Shown here one piece after another: positions 8,822-48,524 of a DNA stretch of 64,000 bases. Both the position numbers and the translations under genes were made by a program. Each line of letters opens with the position of its first letter. Within the stretch, counting starts at the first letter, position 1. This stretch comes from an uncultured Acidimicrobiaceae bacterium. Its GTDB lineage: Bacteria > Actinomycetota > Acidimicrobiia > Acidimicrobiales > Bog-793. The stretch is taken from positions 2,469-66,468 of the forward strand of contig CAVRXQ010000006.1 of NCBI GenBank assembly GCA_963725215.1, in the 5' to 3' direction. The notes under the pieces are model-generated. The model did not search any database. It saw only the letters and a program-made list of their open reading frames with translations, and was not told the DNA's origin.

Positions 8822-9517
8822 ATGGCGAGGGGTTCTTTTGGGCGTACCGTCGCGCGCGCGGCGTCAAGTGGCGGCAGCCGCAGCTATCGGGCCCGACCGC
8901 CGGTGCTGTGGTACCTCCTCATGGCCGTCATCATCGTCGGCGGAATCGGCCTAGTCGTGTACAGCCGTTACGAGGCTGAGCACCCCGCTTCCGCGACCGT
9001 CGGTCCCACTCGCAGCGACAACTGGCAGGCGGCGTTGGGCATCGACATTTGCGGGACGATCGAGCCCAACTTGCCGGTGAGCTCGAACCTTTCGACGTCC
9101 GGACTTCGGACCTACGGCAACGGCCTGATCGACGCGGCCCCTGCTGTGTCGTCGACGCCAAGCGCGTTCGAAGGCGCGAAGGCGACACTCGGACTGTTCG
9201 CCAAGAAATACTCGGGCTTCACGCTCACTTCGACAGAGATCGGCTACCCCGGAAAGAACGAGAAGATCTACAAAAACGGCGACACCTGCGCCGGCAAGCT
9301 GACGGGCAAGGGCACGCTCGTCGCTCGGGTTTGGTCGTCCCCGGGCGCGACGAGATCGACTCTCGTGACCGATCCGACGACGATCCACATCACGAACGGC
9401 GAGATGATCACCGTTGCGTTTGTCCCCTCGGGCGCGACGATCCCGCAGCCCGCATCGAAGTCCGCCCTCGTCTCGCAGATTGGCACCTCGAACTCAGGCA
9501 AGTCGAAGCACAAATAG
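8822..9517 (+). CDS. Membrane-anchored extracytoplasmic hypothetical protein
   Basis: Basic N-terminus, one TM helix (VLWYLLMAVIIVGGIGLVVY), S/T/G-rich domain with two Cys; lies in the gap between the GT2 and NDP-sugar synthase genes. Confidence 0.75.
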   Translation: MARGSFGRTVARAASSGGSRSYRARPPVLWYLLMAVIIVGGIGLVVYSRYEAEHPASATVGPTRSDNWQAALGIDICGTIEPNLPVSSNLSTSGLRTYGNGLIDAAPAVSSTPSAFEGAKATLGLFAKKYSGFTLTSTEIGYPGKNEKIYKNGDTCAGKLTGKGTLVARVWSSPGATRSTLVTDPTTIHITNGEMITVAFVPSGATIPQPASKSALVSQIGTSNSGKSKHK

Positions 9518-9538
9518 GAAAGGGCGAGGCGCGGGTTC

Positions 9539-10615
9539 ATGCAGGCGGTGGTGCTCGTTGGTGGAGAAGGGACCCGACTTCGCCCGCTCACCTACGACAT
9601 CCCAAAGCCGATGCTGCCGATCGTCGGCCGCCCGATCATCGCGAGGGTGGTCGAATGGCTTGCGCTCCACGACGTCACCCGCGCCGTGCTCGCCCTCGGG
9701 TACCGTCCGGATCCATTTTTGGAGGCCTTCCCCGAATCGAGTTGGGAGGGCGTCGAGCTTCTCTACTCGACCGAGCCGGCTCCGCTCGACACCGCGGGCG
9801 CGATCGCTTACGCCGCGGACTTCGCGGGGATGTCGGCCGAACGCATCGTCGTCTTGAACGGTGATGTGCTCACCGACCTCGACCTCTCCAAACTCGTCGC
9901 GTATCACGAAGAACGTGGAGGCGCGACGTCGATCGCCCTCACGCCGGTCGACGACCCGTCTCCGTATGGTGTGGTGGCGATCGATTACGACGGCCGCATC
10001 ACGAAGTTCGTCGAGAAGCCGCGGCCCGGCACCGAACCGTCGCACCTCATCAACGCGGGAACCTATGTCATGGAGCCCGAGGCGATCGCGATGATCGAAC
10101 GAGGCCGTCCGGTGTCGATAGAACGCGAGATCCTCCCCGAGCTCGCGACACGTGGCGCGCTGTACGCGCTCGACTCCGACGCCTATTGGATCGACACGGG
10201 GACCCCGGCCCGCTACATCTCGGCGCAGCTCGACGTCGTCGCCGGCATGCGACCGAATGTGATCCTGCCCGAGTCCAAAGAACGCGCTCCTGGGGTGCTC
10301 GAGGGAACGGGCGCGTCGATTTACGGCGACGTTCGTGCGAACTCGTTCGTCGGCTCGCACGCGACGATCGAGTCGGGTGCCCTCGTAGAGAATGCAATCA
10401 TCTCCGCTGCCGTGCGGGTCGCTGAGGGAGCGGTGGTGCGAAATTCTGTGCTGCTTCGCGACGCGATCGTCGAGCGCGGCGTGAAGATCGATGACACGAT
10501 CGTCGGCCCGCACAGTGTGATCGGAGCGAGCGCAACGGTCATGGGCTGTGTCGTCGGCGCGAACCACACCGTCGAGGAGGGGGCCGTGCTGATCGACGAA
10601 CGCTGTCCTGACTGA
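9539..10615 (+). CDS. NDP-sugar synthase (mannose-1-phosphate guanylyltransferase-like)
   Basis: VLVGGEGTRLRPLT, PKPML, PLDTAGA, LNGDV, FVEKP, INAGTY, WIDTGTP, C-terminal left-handed beta-helix repeats. Confidence 0.9.
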   Translation: MQAVVLVGGEGTRLRPLTYDIPKPMLPIVGRPIIARVVEWLALHDVTRAVLALGYRPDPFLEAFPESSWEGVELLYSTEPAPLDTAGAIAYAADFAGMSAERIVVLNGDVLTDLDLSKLVAYHEERGGATSIALTPVDDPSPYGVVAIDYDGRITKFVEKPRPGTEPSHLINAGTYVMEPEAIAMIERGRPVSIEREILPELATRGALYALDSDAYWIDTGTPARYISAQLDVVAGMRPNVILPESKERAPGVLEGTGASIYGDVRANSFVGSHATIESGALVENAIISAAVRVAEGAVVRNSVLLRDAIVERGVKIDDTIVGPHSVIGASATVMGCVVGANHTVEEGAVLIDERCPD

Positions 10616-39373: not shown

Positions 39374-40086
39374 CCGCTCCTTCGTCGAAAGCGGACGCGC
39401 CGATCTGGCACGGCGGGTGGAGCGTCATCGAGCGCGTCGGCACGCCTGAAGAGCTCGTCACCGATCAGCCCGAACCCGCTGATCGGCGCCTGGCGTGCAT
39501 TTGTCTACCGACGAGTGGAGCCGTGGTCCTCGGTAGCACGCAGCGTCCAGACGAGATCGACGTCGCGCGACGTCGCCGAGCGGGCTACGAGCTGTCGAAG
39601 CGCCGAAGCGGGGGAGGCGCGGTCGTCGTCGCGCCGGGGGCGCAGGCCTGGGTCGATCTCTTCGTGCCCCGCGACGACCCGTTGTTCGAGACAGATGTAT
39701 CTCGCGCCGCGCATTTCGTCGCAGATCTGTGGGTTGAAGTCCTCACCTCGAGCGCGTCGGTGGTGCCGGTGATCGAGCCGATTCGGGCCCTCTCGGCGAC
39801 TCGCTGGTCGCGGAGCGTCTGTTTCTCCGGGCTCGGTCCAGGCGAGGTGACGGTGGCGGAAAAAAAGGTCGTCGGAGTCTCCCAGCGACGTGATCGGCGC
39901 GGCGCGTGGTTCTTCACGATGGCGCTGTATGAAAACCGCCAACACGTGCTCGCCGAGTTGTTGGTGCTCGAAGAGCCCGAGCGCGACGCGTTGCGCGCCG
40001 AGCTCTCGTTGCACGTGGGCTCGCTCGATGAAGCGACTGGGGTTCTCGAGGATGGTCTCCTACGTGCGCTGATCGGAGCGGATTAG
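39328..40086 (+). CDS. Lipoate-protein ligase family protein
   Basis: AVVLGSTQ, RRSGGGAVV, CFSGLGPGE, KKVVGVSQRR; start uncertain. Confidence 0.8.
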   Translation: MGAVRDSVARSRRGLTAPSSKADAPIWHGGWSVIERVGTPEELVTDQPEPADRRLACICLPTSGAVVLGSTQRPDEIDVARRRRAGYELSKRRSGGGAVVVAPGAQAWVDLFVPRDDPLFETDVSRAAHFVADLWVEVLTSSASVVPVIEPIRALSATRWSRSVCFSGLGPGEVTVAEKKVVGVSQRRDRRGAWFFTMALYENRQHVLAELLVLEEPERDALRAELSLHVGSLDEATGVLEDGLLRALIGAD

Positions 40087-40283
40087 CGGGCGAAGACGTG
40101 CCAGCCGAGCCACATCCATCCGACCGAGACGACGATTCGGCCGACAACTGTCCGGGTCGCCAGTCGTGCGACCGTTCCGGCCGGCGCCACGGGTCGGTGT
40201 GTCGTGTGCGCGAGGACCTCGAGTCCGATCGCGATCGCGGCGAGGACGACCCAAATCGCGATCGTCACTTCGCGCACCGTCAT
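40083..40283 (-). CDS. Small membrane protein, DUF6186-like
   Basis: MTVREVTIAIWVVLAAIAIGLE...GWMWLGWHVFAR; ATGA coupling with the upstream ORF. Confidence 0.72.
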   Translation of the reverse strand: MTVREVTIAIWVVLAAIAIGLEVLAHTTHRPVAPAGTVARLATRTVVGRIVVSVGWMWLGWHVFAR

Positions 40284-40669
40284 GACAACGCGATCCACGC
40301 GCCGAAGACGACCCACGCGAAGAACGACACGCCCCTCGAAATCGAATTGGTCGCCAGAACGGTGAGCGCCGCGCTCACCGTCGGATGGGAGTGTCGCGGC
40401 GTTTCGGCGTAGTTGAAGACCTCGAATCCGATCGCGCCCGCCGCGAGCGCCGTCCAGACGACGATTGAGCGTGCTGGAACTCGGATCGGCGTTGCGAGCC
40501 GCGTGCCCGGTCCGGGAATCAGTGGGATAACCCACCGACGCGCGGCGCTGAGCGTGACGAAAAGGACGAGCGCCACGGCCGTGACGATGTCCGATCCGTC
40601 GGTGAAGACCCGCGTCTGTGAAGCCGCGACAGCGAGCACGATCGCCAGAAGTCCCAACCAAAGGCGCAC
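40280..40669 (-). CDS. Hypothetical multi-TM membrane protein
   Basis: 129-aa hydrophobic ORF (…HSHPTVS…) whose stop overlaps the next start. Confidence 0.7.
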   Translation of the reverse strand: MRLWLGLLAIVLAVAASQTRVFTDGSDIVTAVALVLFVTLSAARRWVIPLIPGPGTRLATPIRVPARSIVVWTALAAGAIGFEVFNYAETPRHSHPTVSAALTVLATNSISRGVSFFAWVVFGAWIALS

Positions 40670-40786: not shown

Positions 40787-41557
40787 TTATCCGCCCGAGG
40801 CTGACGCCGCGATTGCTGGCCCAGGTAACGAGAGCGCGTTCACGGCGTCGAGGTTTCCGATCGTGTAGCGGATGAGCCGTCGTGCCCGAACCGGGGTAAG
40901 CGTTTCGCATATCCAATCCCAGTGCACAGAGACGAGGTCCCCGACCTTGGGAGTGTCCTCACCTTCGCCCTGAGACACGAAACGGCGGACGTGAACGTCG
41001 GTCGCGCCGGTGAGTCGGAGACGGTCGTTTTCGAACGCCAGCCTCGGCGTTCGCACGACGGCCATATCCTCATCAACCGACAGCACGCGCCCCCATCGGA
41101 CGCGGCAGCGGTCAATGACGTCGAGCGCCGGTCCTCGCATGCCCGAACGCAAAAGACCGAGCCACGGGTACACGGCGAACACGTGGAAGCTGTGATGAGG
41201 CACCCCGCCTTCTGGTACTGCGTTCGCCACGTTCACGAATGCCGACCCGGCTCGGCGGGCGAAGCGCTCGTCGAGCGAGATCAACATCGCCTGTCTTGGC
41301 ACCCGTCGGATGAGGTCGTTGCCGACCCAATACGCCTCGACGACCCGCGAATCGAGAGGATCCGCGATCGCGTTCGATCCCGCTATTAGCTGCAGGTAGG
41401 GCCAGGCACCGTCGAACTCCCTCGCGAGAAGTGACAGGTCGGAAACGTCGCGCCCTGAGAGCGCCCCGGCGAGCGAGGCCGGATCGGAGGGGCCGCAGTA
41501 TCCGAGAGAGTTCGGCGGATACGCGTAGCGCGCGAACAAGAGCGCCCCGTCGATCAC
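40787..41557 (-). CDS. DUF6390-like hydrogenase-cluster protein
   Basis: GALLFARYAYPPNSLGYCGP, EAYWVGN, PHHSFHV, CRVRWG, VHWDWIC; start GTG 41557 coupled to the EamA stop. Confidence 0.8.
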   Translation of the reverse strand: MIDGALLFARYAYPPNSLGYCGPSDPASLAGALSGRDVSDLSLLAREFDGAWPYLQLIAGSNAIADPLDSRVVEAYWVGNDLIRRVPRQAMLISLDERFARRAGSAFVNVANAVPEGGVPHHSFHVFAVYPWLGLLRSGMRGPALDVIDRCRVRWGRVLSVDEDMAVVRTPRLAFENDRLRLTGATDVHVRRFVSQGEGEDTPKVGDLVSVHWDWICETLTPVRARRLIRYTIGNLDAVNALSLPGPAIAASASGG

Positions 41558-42495
41558 GCGAACGCCGACCTTTTCCTCGCCACCGCGGCGGCGATGACGG
41601 TGCCCACCGCGACGAGGGCCAGTCCCCACGCCTCTGGTGCCAAGTCTTTGTGCTGGACCACTGCCTGCAAGAGCGCCGTCACGATGGCGCTCGAAACGAG
41701 GATCGAGGTGACGTCCACCGCACACGACCGAGAGAGCGCCACCATCCAGCTCGCCACGTAGGCCCCGAGCAACACGCCCGTGATCGCGACCCAACGCAGC
41801 GCGTTGGCGTCTAGGTGGAACAGCATTCCGAGCTTCCCAGTGATCGCGAGATAGCAGACGAGCACGCCCAGCCCACCGCCCATCCGCACGACGCCCATCG
41901 AGGCGGGATCGAAAGCGGGGAACACGCGTCGGATGATCACCGTTTCGATTCCCCAAAGGACGGTCGCGCCGAGGACGAGCGCGTTGCCCGAGTTCATGAC
42001 GAGCGAACCGACGCCACCGCCGACCGCGACGGTGCCGACGACGAGGAGCGCGATCGCAATTGCGTTCCAGACCGAAAGCCGCTCCCGCAGAGCGGGCCAG
42101 GCGACGAGCGCGACCCAAATCACGAGGGTGTCGTGGAGGAACGCGGCCGGCACGGCCGAGGTGCGGGCGAGTCCGTCGAAGAACATCACGAACGCGACGC
42201 CTCCGCCGACGACCGCGACGTAGGAGAGGGCAACGACCTCCGACACTCCGCGCAGCGCTGGGCGCGACATGTCCTTCGTGGCTGGCAGTGAATAAGGCCG
42301 CCTGGTGCGCGCGACAACAGCGAACGCGAGGAGCAAGATCGCGGCGAAGAAGTTCTTTCCCGTCGTGTAGACCGCCGGACTCGTCACGGAATGGACGCCG
42401 TAGCTGTTCACGAACACGGACACTCCGCTCACCGCGGCAGTGATCCCGGCGAACGCCAGGCCCGGGATGAGTCGGGCTCGCAGCCGCGCGCTCAT
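41554..42495 (-). CDS. EamA/DMT family transporter
   Basis: About 10 hydrophobic helices in two EamA-like halves; coupled to the hypC-like gene. Confidence 0.82.
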   Translation of the reverse strand: MSARLRARLIPGLAFAGITAAVSGVSVFVNSYGVHSVTSPAVYTTGKNFFAAILLLAFAVVARTRRPYSLPATKDMSRPALRGVSEVVALSYVAVVGGGVAFVMFFDGLARTSAVPAAFLHDTLVIWVALVAWPALRERLSVWNAIAIALLVVGTVAVGGGVGSLVMNSGNALVLGATVLWGIETVIIRRVFPAFDPASMGVVRMGGGLGVLVCYLAITGKLGMLFHLDANALRWVAITGVLLGAYVASWMVALSRSCAVDVTSILVSSAIVTALLQAVVQHKDLAPEAWGLALVAVGTVIAAAVARKRSAFA

Positions 42496-42755
42496 GACAC
42501 CGTCTTCGAGTGGTTTTCGAGCTGTTCAGTTTGGTATCCGATCCGCTGCAGCTCGTCGAGCGCCAGCTGCACTTGATCCGCCGGTGAAGACGCGAGCGCG
42601 TATCCGGCGTGGGCGATCACCCACGTTCCCGCAAGAGGAGCCGGTTCTTCGAACGCGAGTAGCGAAAGTCGGTGTTCGCGACCATCGACGTCTTGTGCGA
42701 CGACGACGTCCTCACCAGCCGATCTCAGCACGCGGAAAAAACGGCTTGTGCACAT
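42492..42755 (-). CDS. hypC: HypC/HupF-like hydrogenase chaperone (divergent)
   Basis: Starts MC (Cys2), ...GTWVIAHAGYAL; TGATG coupling with the protease gene. Confidence 0.72.
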   Translation of the reverse strand: MCTSRFFRVLRSAGEDVVVAQDVDGREHRLSLLAFEEPAPLAGTWVIAHAGYALASSPADQVQLALDELQRIGYQTEQLENHSKTVS

Positions 42756-43210
42756 CAGTGATCCCCTTCCCATTGCGAGATGACGTCCTCGATCGCCGCG
42801 GCGGCGCGGGTGACGGCTCCAGCGACGGCACCACTCAGGTGATCACCATCGGAGAAGTCTTCCCCTTCGATCCCGACGACGACGACACGCCGTGGCGCGT
42901 CACCGAGGGCGGACGCGATGCGACAGACCCGACGCAATCCAAAGGCGTGCGTCGACGCGCTCGACCCGTCGTCGATCTCGTCGAGTTCGACAAAGAGAAC
43001 GGTTCCGGGTGCTGACTTCGACCTGGTCGCGTCAACGAGCACCGCGAGCGAGGCGCCTTCCCACCGACCGAGGAGGTCGAGCGGCTCGGAGATCGGTCCG
43101 ATGTCGCGCGCGCACTTCGATTGCGCGACGAGCGACGCCACGGCAACCCCGACGCCGTCGTCCCCACGGTAACGGTTGCCGATCCCCGCGACGACGACGT
43201 TTCCGATCAT
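42755..43210 (-). CDS. Hydrogenase maturation protease
   Basis: VAGIGNRYRGDDGVG, VLVDA, STHAFGL, VVGIEG; start ATG 43210. Confidence 0.92.
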   Translation of the reverse strand: MIGNVVVAGIGNRYRGDDGVGVAVASLVAQSKCARDIGPISEPLDLLGRWEGASLAVLVDATRSKSAPGTVLFVELDEIDDGSSASTHAFGLRRVCRIASALGDAPRRVVVVGIEGEDFSDGDHLSGAVAGAVTRAAAAIEDVISQWEGDH

Positions 43211-44511
43211 TTGTGCTCCACCGAGAGATCGAGGAAGTGCGCGGCACAAGAGATGCAAGGGTCGTGATTGCGGACCGCTTGTTCGCAAAGGTCGCGAAGG
43301 TCGTCGTCGCCCCATTCAAGTCGCGAGGCGATCACGCCGCGCAGGTCATCTTCGATCGCGTCTTGGTTCTGCGACGTCGGCGGCATGATCCTTGCGTCGC
43401 TGATCAAACCGTCTTCGGTGATCGCGTAGCGCTGGAGGAGCAGTCCGCGTGGCGCCTCCGTCGCGCCGGCGCCGGTGGCCGCGCGTGGGGCGAGCCGAAC
43501 CGACGGGGGATCGAAGCGCGAATAGGACTCGACGAGGCGGAGTGCTTCCTCGCACGCCGCGACGATCTCGACAGAGCGCACGACGATGCTCTTGAACGGG
43601 TTGCGGCACACCTCTCCCAACTGTGAGCGATGCGCCGCCTCGGCAGCGAGTGGCGGGAGCTTCGCCGAGCTCAGCGCGTAGCGAGCGAGGGGACCGGTGA
43701 GGTACGTGTCTTTCCCGCGTAGTTTTGCGTGTAGCGCACTCGAACGTTGCACGTGCTCTTCGGTGACGAGATCGAGGAATCCGCCGGCCGAGACCTTTAG
43801 CCCATCAGTGGTGTGGATCGTTCCCGATTCGATCGCGTATCGGGCCTCGTCGACGAGCGCCGCGAAGAGGTAGTCGTGCGAGGCGTCGGGGAATTCGAAG
43901 CCGGACACCCACTCGACCGTCTCGAGGGCGTCATCCAACGCTTGACGAAGGACGGGCGCAAGCGAGGCCATCTCCTCGGTGTCCGGCGCACGGTAGAAGC
44001 CGCCGACCCGGACGTTCACGGGGTGGATCGCGCGGCCGCCGACTCTTTCCATGATTGCGTTGCCGGCCTTTTTCAACCGTAGGCCGCGCTCAACCGCCGA
44101 TCGGTCGGCGGCAGCCAGTTCGACCGCGTCTTCGAAGCCGAAGAAGTCCGGCGCGTGCAAGAGGTAGACGTGCAGGGCGTGGCTCTGGATCCACTCCCCG
44201 CAATACAGCAACCGGCGCAGTTCTGAGATCTCGGGAGTCACCTTTACGCCACACGCGTCTTCGATCGCGTTGCACGCCGACATTTGGTATGCGACCGGGC
44301 AGATGCCACAGATCCGCGCCGTGATGTCGGGAGGTTCCTCAAATCCTCGTCCGCGAAGGAACGCTTCGAAAAAACGCGGCGGTTCGAAGATCTCGAGTTC
44401 GACCGACTCGAGCTCGCCGCCCGCGATTCGCACGTGGAGCGACCCTTCCCCCTCCACGCGGGCGAGCCCGTGGACGTCGATCGCGCGGTTCGCGAGCGTG
44501 TTATCCGACAT
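43207..44511 (-). CDS. [NiFe]-hydrogenase large subunit, group 3b
   Basis: [22 protein letters not shown] (L1), [14 protein letters not shown] (L2) plus C-terminal extension. Confidence 0.95.
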
Positions 44512-45271
44512 TCCGGCTCGCTTCCTGTTCAAAGGCCGCCGAGGCGGCGTTGAAGGTGCGGTACATCCGCGCGACGTGATCGCGCCTCACCCCGAGCTCG
44601 ATGAACCGCCTCGAGAGCGAGGTGGTGTTCGGGCTCTCGGAGGGGCCGAAGCAGCCGTAACAACCGCGGTCGACCGACGGGCAGAGCGCGCCGCAGCCGG
44701 CGCGGGTGACCGGACCGAGGCACGGCGTGCCGCTGACGACGAGGACGCAGACATTGCCCTTCGCCTTGCATTGTTCACAGACGCTGTAGGACGGGATCCG
44801 CGGTCGCCTCGCGGCGAGATACGCGGAGATCACCTCGAGGAGCTGGTGTTTGTTGATCGGACAGCCGTGGAGTTCGAATTCGACCGGAACGAGGGCCGAG
44901 ATCGGCTCCGATCGAGCGAGCGTCGAGATGTATTCGGGATGCGCGTAGATCGCCGAAACGAAATCGCCGACGTCGGCGTAGTTGCGCAGGGCCTGGATGC
45001 CTCCGGCCGTCGCGCACGCGCCGATCGTGATGAGACTCTTCGACTGGGCGCGAATGGCGATAATGCGCTCGGCGTCCTCCGGAGTCGTGATCGAACCTTC
45101 GACGAGTGAGACGTCGTAGGGCCCTGCGATCTGCGCCCGTGACATCTCGGTGAACTTTGCGATCACGAGGTGTTCGGTGACCGCAAGGAGCTCGTCCTCG
45201 CAGTCGAGCAGGCTGAGCTGACAGCCGTCGCAGGATGCGAACTTGAACACCGCCAGACGGGGACCACTCAT
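44501..45271 (-). CDS. [NiFe]-hydrogenase small (delta) subunit
   Basis: [24 protein letters not shown]...CVLV...[15 protein letters not shown]...GCYGCFGP. Confidence 0.93.
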
Positions 45272-46104
45272 CGCTCGGCCACCTTCATCTCGTACTCCGC
45301 GATCGGTGAGTAGGGGACGACCGGACCGTCGCGGCAGATGAGGAACGGCCCGAGTTGACAATGCCCGCAGAATCCGACCCCGCAGTTCATGTTGCGTTCC
45401 AAGGAGACGAAGATTCGTTCCGGGCTGACGCCGCGATCGATCAATGTGCGCGCGCTGAAGCGCATCATGATCTCCGGTCCGCAAACGAATGCCATCGCAG
45501 AGCGAGCGTCGAAGGACGCGTCGGAGATCAGTTGCGTCACGACGCCGACCGGTCCGAGCCAATCCGCGTCTGCCACGTCGACCGTGACTCTGACTCTTGC
45601 TCCCCGGGTGCGCCAGTCGTCCAGGTCGTTGGAGTAAATGATCTGATCCGGTGTGCGGGCGCCGACGAGCACGAGGACATCTCCCGTACGACCATGCTCG
45701 AGCGTCTCGACGAGCCGGATGATCGCGCCGCGAAGCGGCGCGATCCCGATTCCGCCCGCGACGACGACGACATCGTGATCGCCGATGTCGTCGATCGGCC
45801 AATCGGTTCCGTAGGGTCCACGGACACCGACGACGTCTCCGGGTGCGGTGTTCGCGAGGGAGTGGCTCACCGCACCGACGTCGCGGATCGTGTGTTCTAG
45901 GACGGGCGAACGCTTCGGATCCGAGCTCACAGAGATCGCCGCCTCACCAACGCCGAACGCGCTCAACATGTTGAACTGGCCGGGCCTCGGTGCGGTGATC
46001 GGATGGTCAAGGGGATCGAGGGTGATCGTCGCGATGTCCTCCGAGTCGAGGCGGTGGTCGACGACGCGATATCGCACCGGGACGAGAGGGTTGTCGAAGC
46101 TCAT
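45268..46104 (-). CDS. FAD/NAD(P)-binding gamma subunit (HydG/AsrB-like)
   Basis: [53 protein letters not shown]...CRDGPV. Confidence 0.92.
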
Positions 46105-46111
46105 CGCGTCT

Positions 46112-46579
46112 TCAGCCGACGAGGTCTCGGCCGTAGACGTCAAGGAGTCGGGTCCTCGTCGCTTGGAGGCGCTCGAGGAGGACCTGTGCGATGCGCTGGA
46201 GGATCGCGTAGCCGAACGCTGGCTCCTCGTCTGCCTTCTTGCGCAAACAGAGTCCGTCGATCGCGACCGCGCCGACGGGTTCGGTCGCGACGGCGTCGAA
46301 ATGCCATCGGTACGGAGGGACGAGCCACGAGAGCCCGAGGATCTTGCCGGGACCGATCGTCTCGATGACGATCGGTTTTCCCGATGGACGACGAACCTGG
46401 ATCGCGACTTGACCCCGCCGGATGAGAAAAAAGGTGTCTGCTTCCTCGCCTTCGAGTAACAGCCGCTCCCCTTCGTCGAATGCGACATTCGTCGCGCATC
46501 CCGCCGCAAGGTCGATCGCCGAAGCCCCAAGCCCCGAGAACAACGGGGTCTCAGCGATGAGCTCGTTCATCGATTCCAC
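46112..46579 (-). CDS. Stand-alone cyclic-nucleotide-binding domain protein (no HTH)
   Basis: [38 protein letters not shown]; 155 aa; GGAGG RBS. Confidence 0.85.
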
Positions 46580-46598
46580 TGTTCGTCCTCCGTCTCCT

Positions 46599-47720
46599 TC
46601 ACGTCGTCGCCGCGGGCCTAGACGTGTCTGTGCCCGCGATCGCGGCGACTTCTTCTGTCAGATCGATCCCGACAGGGCACCACGTGATGCAGCGGCCGCA
46701 GCCGACGCATCCGGATGATCCGAACTGATCGACCCAGGTCGAGAGCTTGTGGGTCAACCACTGCCGGTACCGCGAGCGCGTGGAAGCGTGCACGGAACCG
46801 CCGTGGAGGTAAGAGTGCTCGAGGGAAAAGCACGAGTCCCAACGCCGCGAGACCTCGATATCGCCCTCGAGGTTCGTTTTGTGCTCGAAGGCCGAGCAAA
46901 AACACGTCGGGCAGACGAGCGTGCAGTTGCCGCAGGCGAGACACCGCGTCGCGACGTCGTCCCACCGAGCATGTTCGAGGTTCTCGGCGAGAAGCGACGG
47001 AGCCCGACGCGCGTCGAGCGTGCGTGAGATCGTGGCGCGAGAGTTCTCGAGGATCTCGTCCCTCGTCGTGAGATCTTCTGCGGCTGCGTCGCGATGGGGG
47101 ACCGCGTCAAGAAGTGAGCGGCCGAGGTCGGATCCCACTCGGACCAAAAAACGGTGCGACGGCTCGAGCAATTCGGTGAGGGCGAGGTCGTAGCCGTCCT
47201 TTGCGTCGGGACCTGTCGACATCGAAGGACAAAAACACGTCGACGCCGGTTGTCCGCATTCGACGGCGATCACCGCCAGGTGCTCGCGTCGACGATCGTG
47301 CTCGGGGTCGTGGAATCTGCCGCCCGAGAGGACCGTCGACAGAACCCCGAGCGCCGCGACCTCGCACGGACGCACCCCGACGAACGCCTCGCGCACCTCG
47401 CCACCTTGCGGCGCGGAGAGTTCGAGGTCGCCTTCGTTCGTCCGGCGCCCCCGCCACACCACCGATTCTGAGGGGAACACCGACGCTTTGAGCGAGGTTG
47501 GACCGACCGCCCACCCGAACAATTCGCGGTCGCCGTCGTTGCGGATCCGATAGGAGCCAGGAGCCTGCTCGTCGTGCCAGCCGGCGGGGAGGTCGTCGCA
47601 CGACCGCACGTCGCGATGGACGATCGCGCCGTCGCGAACCGTCGGACCGAGCACGCGATAGCCCCGCGAGCGGAGTTCTCCAATCAGGGTATCGAAGTGA
47701 TCGCGATCGATCACCGCCAT
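46599..47720 (-). CDS. 4Fe-4S beta subunit (HydB/AsrA-like)
   Basis: [54 protein letters not shown]; start ATG 47720. Confidence 0.92.
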
Positions 47721-47768
47721 TGGCCGGCTCACGTGGGTCACCGTAAGGACTGGGGAGCGTGCCGACAA

Positions 47769-47834
47769 GGGTCCGACGTCCCAGCAGACACGGTCAGCCC
47801 ACTTCGCTGGGACGGTCGGTAGGACCATCGGCCC
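47769..47834. promoter_or_regulatory. Cluster of DosR/DevR-like boxes (GGGAC-N4-G(T/G)CCC) in the divergent hydrogenase/POR promoter
   Basis: GGGTCCGACGTCCC 47769-82; GACACGGTCAGCCC 47787-800 (weak); GGGACGGTCGGTAG 47809-22; AGGACCATCGGCCC 47821-34. Confidence 0.62.
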
Positions 47835-47918
47835 TGGTCGAAGCGGCGACGCGACGCAACCATGGGTTCGATCGAGTCGGCGCGCGCGACACCGCGCACA
47901 AGACGCCGAAGGGGGAAC

Positions 47919-48524
47919 ATGTTCCAAGTTCGATTCCACGGGCGAGGCGGTCAGGGTGTGGTCACCGCCGCCGAGCTCCTTGCGGTCGCGGCGTTCGACG
48001 ACGGCCGGTATTCACAAGCGTTTCCGACCTTCGGTTCCGAACGCACCGGCGCGCCGATCGTCTCGTTCTGTCGCATCGACGACAAGGAGATCAGGACCCG
48101 CTCGCCGATCAGCGAGCCCGACGCGCTGATCATCCAGGACCCGACGCTGCTCGGACTGCCCGGGCTGTTCACGGGGTTGCGACCGGAGGGCTACCTCGTG
48201 CTCAACACCTCGAAACCGATCGCCGAACTCGGACTTGGCACGCTCGCGTTGAGCTTGCCGCCTGGGCACCTGCTCGCGATCGGTGCGACAGAGCTCGCGC
48301 TGGAGCACCTCGGTCGTCCGCTGCCCAACGCGGTGCTGCTCGGCGGTCTCGCCGCAATCACCGGCGTGGTCTCGCTTGGCGCCGTGGTCGCGGCAATCGA
48401 AGAGCGATTTACGGGTGCCGCGGGATCGGGAAATGTCGCCGCGGCACAAGCGGCCTACGAGATCGGTCGCGCCGCGTTCGGTGCGCAAGAGAACAACAGG
48501 GGGGTGGCTCTTCGTGCTTCGTGA
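47919..48524 (+). CDS. porC: 2-oxoacid:acceptor oxidoreductase gamma subunit
   Basis: MFQVRFHGRGGQGVVT, QAFPTFGSERTGAP, PDALIIQDPTL, PNAVLLG. Confidence 0.92.
   Translation: MFQVRFHGRGGQGVVTAAELLAVAAFDDGRYSQAFPTFGSERTGAPIVSFCRIDDKEIRTRSPISEPDALIIQDPTLLGLPGLFTGLRPEGYLVLNTSKPIAELGLGTLALSLPPGHLLAIGATELALEHLGRPLPNAVLLGGLAAITGVVSLGAVVAAIEERFTGAAGSGNVAAAQAAYEIGRAAFGAQENNRGVALRAS

Follow-up and report, generated by a model that had tools for sequence, protein, structure and literature searches.

DUF6390 carries a HypC-type domain and is a candidate iron-handling maturation factor of [NiFe]-hydrogenases in genomes without HypD and HypF

Current reviews, for example PMC12130793 in its abstract, attribute the building of the cofactor of all [NiFe]-hydrogenases to six Hyp proteins, and the locus described here raises the question of how such an enzyme could be matured when several of them are missing. 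The window (the whole stretch of 64,000 nucleotides analysed, from contig CAVRXQ010000006.1 of an uncultured Acidimicrobiaceae bacterium) holds a group 3b hydrogenase operon whose last four genes encode a maturation endopeptidase, a divergent HypC-like protein, an EamA-family permease and a member of the protein family DUF6390, in which a preliminary description had proposed a hidden HypC-like domain. By profile comparison and structure modelling, the C-terminal half of DUF6390 was shown to be a genuine HypC-type OB domain, homologous to HypC. On this basis, together with gene context, we propose at about even confidence that DUF6390 may handle iron during [NiFe]-hydrogenase maturation, imitating the HypC-HypD site in concert with a dedicated importer.

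The DUF6390 gene (40787-41557, minus strand, GTG start) encodes 256 amino acids and matches PF19927 with 285.5 bits against a cut-off of 25, over model positions 3-239 of 244. A helical domain (residues 1-150; 41108-41557, minus strand) carrying C21 (GYCGP) and H122/H125 (PHHxFHV) precedes the HypC-type OB domain (residues 151-240; 40838-41107, minus strand), which carries C151, H212 and C217 and has a helix after its barrel. The strings on which the preliminary description had relied, CRVRWGRVLSVDEDMAVV, KVGDLVSVHWDWIC, YCGP and PHHSFH, are all present in the protein, and the Cys codon that it placed at 41105-41107 is exactly that of C151. An alignment of 60 diverse family members, the least similar pairs sharing about 31% identity, gave an AlphaFold2 (AF2) model with a predicted local distance difference test (pLDDT) score of 91 and a predicted template modelling score of 0.89; in it, helices occupy residues 4-151, a five-stranded barrel 154-220 and a further helix 222-240.

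When the DUF6390 profile was compared with all PDB sequences, only three matches were obtained, all of them HypC (2z1c, 3vyr and 3d3r), with C151 aligned on Cys2 and GDxVxxHWDWVC on GDWVIVHTGFA. In hhalign, residues 146-256 reached 94.5% against a profile of operon-type HypC (P 7.6e-8, 66 columns) and 94.1% against an all-HypC profile, the alignment spanning C151/Cys2 through the C-terminal helix and placing H212 on the HypC histidine (GDWVLVHxGFA), while reversed templates gave 0.2-0.3% and the DUF6390 N-terminal domain gave 0.1%. The HypC profiles were built from the related loci that we had fetched, because the sequences found with E. coli HypC as query were all near-identical ones from enterobacteria. 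Foldseek aligned the model with HypC 2z1c_B at a TM score of 0.68 (normalised to HypC length; prob 0.99); however, the Foldseek output for the full model was dominated by ribosomal uS17 OB folds with E-values similar to those of HypC, so the fold by itself is not HypC-specific and it is the sequence profiles that single out HypC. The similarity lies at the profile-profile level only, no match of DUF6390 to PF01455 or TIGR00074 being found at E <=0.01. The HypC-like C-terminus proposed beforehand from motif likeness is hence borne out, with OB-fold similarity to HypC, by the modelled barrel and helix, by Foldseek and by hhalign. A likeness to FKBP in a single-sequence phmmer search against PDB was set aside as chance matches.

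Compared with HypC/HybG/HupF (PF01455, TIGR00074), DUF6390 shares the OB barrel with its C-terminal helix, the leading cysteine, the GDxVxxH motif with the invariant histidine, and a location in hydrogenase maturation operons. It differs in that its cysteine is internal (151 of 256, after a helix) and not at the free N-terminus of a protein of ~75-110 amino acids, in the 150-residue helical Cys/His domain placed in front, in an additional beta-hairpin insertion and an additional conserved cysteine (Cys217, HWDWVC), and in that most carriers are without a HypD partner. The Cys and His residues of both domains are almost invariant: among the 60 aligned members, C21 is kept in 59, H122 and H125 in 59 and 55, C151 (aligned to Cys2 of E. 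coli HypC) in 59, H212 (aligned to His51 of E. coli HypC) in 60 and C217 in 58.

The N-terminal domain modelled alone was all-helical (AF2, pLDDT 85) and had no structural relative in the PDB by Foldseek (best E 3.8, TM <=0.22), and because of this missing match we dropped the ideas that it has the fold of a known enzyme or is what is left of HypD. It has neither sequence nor fold similarity to HypD, and GYCGP and PHHxFHV only loosely recall the HypD motifs, which are CGxHxH, GPGCPVC and the [4Fe-4S] cysteines. The pLDDT of the C21 loop was 91-96 in the full-length model against 73-78 in the isolated domain, and that of residues 131-150 was 82-93 against 59-60; as these segments are confident only when the HypC-like domain is present, the models suggest that both pack against it.

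Which Hyp proteins accompany DUF6390 was assessed first in the genome of the window, a 2.73-Mb assembly that is 90.4% complete. There, the hidden Markov model (HMM) of HypD (PF01924) found no match, that of HypF found only acylphosphatase-like and TsaD-like fragments, that of HypE found only a PurM-like match of 44.8 bits at noise level, and phmmer with E. coli HypA-F found nothing. The absence of hypA, hypB, hypD, hypE and hypF, which had been noted for the window, thus extends to the whole assembly. In a sample of 301 genomes of the phylum, HypD was present in 152 and the NiFe large subunit in 161. Eight clearly NiFe-positive genomes had no HypD; six of these also had no HypE and HypF. These six, each from a different family and one of them (G067) assembled as one contig of 3.17 Mb, all carry DUF6390. 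In the remaining two, fragments of HypE/HypF lie at the ends of contigs, and they are therefore taken as assembly gaps (Fisher's exact test for the sample: p 1.7e-4 with all counted, 1.8e-7 without gaps and weak hits).

A further set of 50 DUF6390 genomes consisted of 17 cultured isolates, 3 closed chromosomes of metagenome-assembled genomes (MAGs) and 30 long-contig MAGs. HypD and HypF were both absent in 46 of the 50, including all 17 isolates (Arthrobacter and relatives, Pedococcus, Fodinibacter), and the same 4 genomes were positive in both searches, which returned E of about 1e-155 to 1e-230 in these positives and in control genomes. HypE was checked in the first six HypDEF-less genomes and was absent in 6/6. 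Each of the 14 DUF6390 genomes within the 301-genome sample has a [NiFe] large subunit.

DUF6390 is a large family: its members form at least 1166 clusters at 50% identity, and they were seen in the genomes of at least 595 species. For its gene context, we counted the best 80 DUF6390 loci, the related-locus search having used a 12-sequence alignment, and scored hydrogenase genes within 10 kb. Such genes were present in 72 of the 80 loci, so that DUF6390 was not found to occur frequently apart from hydrogenases. In 52 loci, a group 3b operon ends with protease, divergent hypC, EamA and DUF6390 genes as in the window, and 2 further loci are 3b operons without EamA; in 18, a group 1h cluster runs hypA, hypB, large subunit, HhyE-like, protease and hypC with DUF6390 beside hypC. 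Eight loci had no hydrogenase gene, and about half of these lie on short contigs. The large subunit of the group 1h-type cluster of Arthrobacter globiformis scores 1068 bits against 5aa5, a solved hydrogenase of group 1h. Large-subunit motifs in the related loci are intact wherever readable, with RxCGxC and DPCxxCxxH plus the tail both read in most; as both Cys pairs and the cleavable tail are thus preserved in most, the hydrogenases appear to be under selection, and judged by these motifs they look functional. In genomes with hyp genes, DUF6390 directly follows hypD or hypC. One closed genome with full hypABCDEF has a DUF6390 remnant (residues 11-51) directly after hypD (L030, G243:C1, ~9305-10132), and this apparently decayed copy suggests that DUF6390 can be dispensable when HypCDEF is present.

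A second recurrent feature of these loci is a membrane transporter. EamA and DUF6390 genes are paired in 52 of the 80 loci, and single-chain EamA-DUF6390 fusions exist, one of them encoded in a MAG beside the large and small NiFe subunits. At least 8 loci have beside DUF6390 an Fbp-like ATP-binding cassette (ABC) system (binding protein, double permease, ATPase) whose binding protein has Fe(III)-binding proteins as nearest solved relatives. The DUF6390 gene of Arthrobacter globiformis has a divergently oriented Peripla_BP_2/FecCD/ATPase operon next to it; an assignment of these Arthrobacter neighbours to the Fbp-like system was rejected, since Pfam shows FecCD and Peripla_BP_2 instead. The preliminary idea of an alternative maturation or metal-delivery module is strengthened by the EamA-DUF6390 fusions and by the absence of HypD and HypF from most DUF6390 genomes (and of HypE from the six checked).

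The mechanism that we propose starts from the helical domain, which would take the place of HypD in clamping the cysteine at the N-terminus of HypC; because it would occupy this position, the two domains could form one Cys/His pocket, a single-chain mimic of the iron site shared by HypC and HypD. The pocket would bind an iron species delivered by the dedicated importer, EamA here and an Fbp-like or FecBCD-like ABC system elsewhere, and would hand this cargo to the stand-alone HypC and the large-subunit precursor, after which the operon endopeptidase would complete maturation. In fusions with helix-turn-helix (HTH) domains, the same module may sense the cargo and regulate transporter genes. We favour iron over nickel because the ABC partners are iron-type, because HypA and HypB are already encoded in the group 1h clusters, and because the residues retained in DUF6390 are the iron ligands of HypC, in which this Cys and His bind iron.

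Since soil bacteria with DUF6390 possess hydrogenases and yet have no HypD and HypF (nor HypE where tested), their metal centre may arise by a route that has not been described. Carriers of group 1h and 3b enzymes might assemble NiFe(CN)2CO without HypD, HypE and HypF by means of the one-chain iron site of DUF6390, the stand-alone HypC and the importer, the diatomic ligands coming from chemistry of the helical domain or from an imported precursor; we regard this stronger version as possible and incline towards doubting it. The candidate HypDEF-independent set comprises cultured Arthrobacter, Pseudarthrobacter, Pedococcus and Fodinibacter strains and many Acidimicrobiia.

Two known systems offer a comparison. 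With the HypC-HypD complex for Fe(CN)2CO assembly, DUF6390 would share the working principle that cysteines of two modules hold one iron at their interface, and it often fills the slot after hypC that is the usual place of hypD. Unlike HypD, its N-terminal domain has no Rossmann-like domains and no [4Fe-4S] motif, the system has no HypE/HypF partners, and DUF6390 is linked to membrane transporters whereas HypCD is not. The other system is metal supply in hydrogenase clusters by HypA, HypB and SlyD with NikABCDE or HupE, which likewise combines an importer gene beside the maturation genes with a cytoplasmic Cys/His receiver; in the DUF6390 system, the receiver is HypC-derived and the transporters are EamA/DMT or iron-type ABC. 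We know of no direct fusion of HypA or HypB to a permease or to HTH regulators.

Several points weigh against an iron-handling scaffold. Metal binding and the nature of the cargo are read solely from conserved residues and neighbouring genes. In the operon-type EamA, Lys, Arg, Glu and Asp residues are conserved, but the membrane core shows neither a conserved His nor a conserved Cys, which argues against a bare soft-metal ion as the substrate. Canonical HypC requires its cysteine to stand free at the N-terminus, so the chemistry of DUF6390, in which it is internal, cannot equal that of HypC. A protein of 256 amino acids cannot obviously replace the [4Fe-4S] cascade of HypD plus cyanide synthesis by HypE/HypF, and no gene identified here accounts for how CN and CO would be made in the absence of HypE and HypF. 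DUF6390 stands alongside a full HypCDEF set in 8 of the 14 sampled carriers, directly after hypD in G178, and because of this coexistence it is not merely a HypCDEF substitute. The counts in the 50 genomes are not independent events, as these genomes are related and mostly belong to Acidimicrobiia and Micrococcales. Finally, fusion to HTH domains is more easily understood for a reversible sensor than for a scaffold.

This last point leads to the main rival, in which DUF6390 would chiefly sense and gate a metal or ligand instead of scaffolding a cofactor. Its Cys/His residues would bind nickel, iron or a chelate reversibly, the HypC fold being re-used only as a binding module, and the adjacent transporter would be controlled allosterically by free or EamA-fused DUF6390 and transcriptionally by the HTH-fused forms. 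Fusions of DUF6390 to four unrelated types of DNA-binding domain (GntR, XRE, PadR and MarR) and to cyclic nucleotide monophosphate (cNMP)-binding domains are in its favour, as is the position of such fusions: GntR-DUF6390 and PadR-DUF6390 directly precede ABC operons, PadR-DUF6390 preceding an SBP_bac_5 (NikA/Opp-type) system. That five of the six Cys/His are kept in all eight fusion or extended proteins, with H125 replaced in two, also speaks for it, as does the frequent coexistence with HypCDEF. However, a sensor gives no account of why DUF6390 is found in every truly HypDEF-less hydrogenase genome of the 301-genome sample or why HypD and HypF are absent from 46 of the 50 carriers; in addition, within maturation operons, stand-alone DUF6390 usually comes, translationally coupled, right after hypC or hypD, a placement typical of stoichiometric assembly partners, and what DUF6390 retains are precisely the residues with which HypC binds iron. 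We consider this sensor reading unlikely. As a separate observation, one protein (P0241) has the N-terminal part of DUF6390 fused to HEAT repeats and a cNMP-binding domain.

Less probable still is that DUF6390 is a nickel metallochaperone replacing HypA and HypB, which would pass Ni from the EamA or ABC importer to the large subunit with the HypC-like domain serving for docking. The genome of the window has no HypA and HypB, hypA and hypB occur within 10 kb in none of the 3b operons with divergent hypC, EamA and DUF6390, the PadR-DUF6390 fusion precedes a NikA-family system, and Cys/His-rich sites suit Ni. Nevertheless, group 1h clusters with hypA and hypB still keep DUF6390, the ABC neighbours are mostly iron-type (Fbp-like or Peripla_BP_2/FecCD), the retained HypC residues are iron ligands, and the missing HypD, HypE and HypF are not addressed, which makes this explanation decidedly improbable. 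That the absence of HypD, HypE and HypF is an artefact of incomplete assemblies or divergent homologues, with DUF6390 a dispensable hitch-hiker having a chance OB fold, we consider extremely improbable: it can invoke the incompleteness of the genome of the window, the two assembly gaps and the uS17 matches in Foldseek, but the joint absence of HypD and HypF extends to 17 isolates and 3 closed MAG chromosomes in searches that worked in positives and controls, the HypDEF-less G067 is one contig, the profile evidence for HypC homology is specific, and six Cys/His are kept across a family of 1166 clusters.

In the window, DUF6390 is the last gene of a translationally coupled chain of nine on the minus strand that begins with the beta subunit gene. 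The chain opens with the Fer4_22 beta subunit (46599-47939), a stand-alone cNMP-binding protein (46112-46579), the NAD-binding gamma subunit (45268-46104) and the small subunit (44501-45271), each recognised by a Pfam match, and the order of these structural genes (44501-47939) is identical in more than 50 related loci. The cNMP-binding gene keeps its position between the beta and gamma genes in essentially all such 3b operons. The large subunit follows (43207-44532; matches to NF040828 and NF040832); its best PDB match is the sulfhydrogenase I alpha subunit 9nez_D (full length, E 8e-59), and since this is its closest solved relative, the enzyme is assigned to group 3b. The two CxxC pairs (RICGIC and DPCISCAAH), a 9-aa C-terminal tail, the sulfhydrogenase relatives and the alpha, delta, beta and gamma genes recognised by Pfam are all found as expected for this group.

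Next come the maturation endopeptidase of 151 amino acids (42755-43210; PF01750 HycI; TIGR00072 101.9 bits, above the cut-off), the divergent HypC of 87 amino acids (42492-42755) and the EamA/DMT-family permease of 313 amino acids (41554-42495), whose PF00892 match of 76.5 bits falls in two stretches corresponding to two EamA repeats. The large subunit and protease genes overlap by ATGA; behind the protease, the coupling of hypC-like, EamA and DUF6390 genes described previously is seen in the TGATG (protease/hypC), ATGA (hypC/EamA) and GTGA (EamA/DUF6390) overlaps, the last placing the GTG start of DUF6390 on the EamA stop. Two small membrane open reading frames (ORFs) downstream of DUF6390 (40083-40669, minus strand) resemble each other and have no Pfam match; they were rejected as members of the general module because, outside the four closest relatives (L038, L040-L042), they are not conserved.

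The 87-aa HypC-like protein of the operon is, judged by its family profile, probably a true but divergent HypC. Single-sequence scores stay under the cut-offs (PF01455 20.9 against 28.5 bits; TIGR00074 24.8 against 48), and a word-indexed homologue search with it matched only itself; however, the profile of 53 operon homologues reaches 99.4% (E 2.8e-21) against canonical HypC. The protein starts with MCTSRFFRV, as had been read before, and keeps Cys2 and GTWVIAHAGYA. The canonical CLxIPG motif is lost, being replaced by C(T/L/V)SR(L/F). We also observed that 5 of the ~53 operon-type homologues have no conserved histidine (L024, L057, L059, L065 and L117; e.g. VLSGYV, VQSGIA, LASAGMAV), whereas the equivalent His212 is kept in 60/60 DUF6390 members.

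Some further observations concern the hydrogenases themselves. In the 3b-type large subunits, the first motif wherever read has Tyr where the group 1h enzymes of this set have His (RICGICGDNH), and it is one identical ten-residue string in all but one of them (44400-44430 in the window). In five loci from long-read MAGs (L045, L061, L062, L084 and L117), the large-subunit gene is broken into 2-3 overlapping ORFs, which are probably assembly frameshift errors and not pseudogenes. In a related Acidimicrobiia MAG (L031, 1-3115), genes for a Prismane-family protein (CODH/HCP-like), Fer4 and a CbiA/CooC-like protein precede the 3b operon on the opposite strand. Among small-genome members of the phylum, many large-subunit genes have a single in-frame TGA and probably encode selenocysteine-containing [NiFeSe] enzymes.

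In our literature search, we found no paper mentioning DUF6390, no description of [NiFe]-hydrogenase organisms without HypD, and nothing relevant on hydrogenase maturation in Arthrobacter. A survey of the candidate phyla radiation (CPR) reported hypC-like families and 'unknown genes' near minimal hydrogenases, in which DUF6390 was not named (PMC7304191).

Taken together, dozens of genomes have intact group 1h or 3b enzymes with protease and HypC and are without HypD and HypF (HypE having been checked in six). Among them are soil isolates that grow readily in culture, and all carry DUF6390 next to a transporter. The source of the cofactor iron and the universality of the HypCDEF route thereby become questions that can be tested in tractable strains, and a large Pfam DUF gains a function-level lead. 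Atmospheric-H2 oxidisers of this type are ecologically important, and a different maturation route, if true, would alter the criteria by which genome surveys assess the potential for hydrogenase activity.

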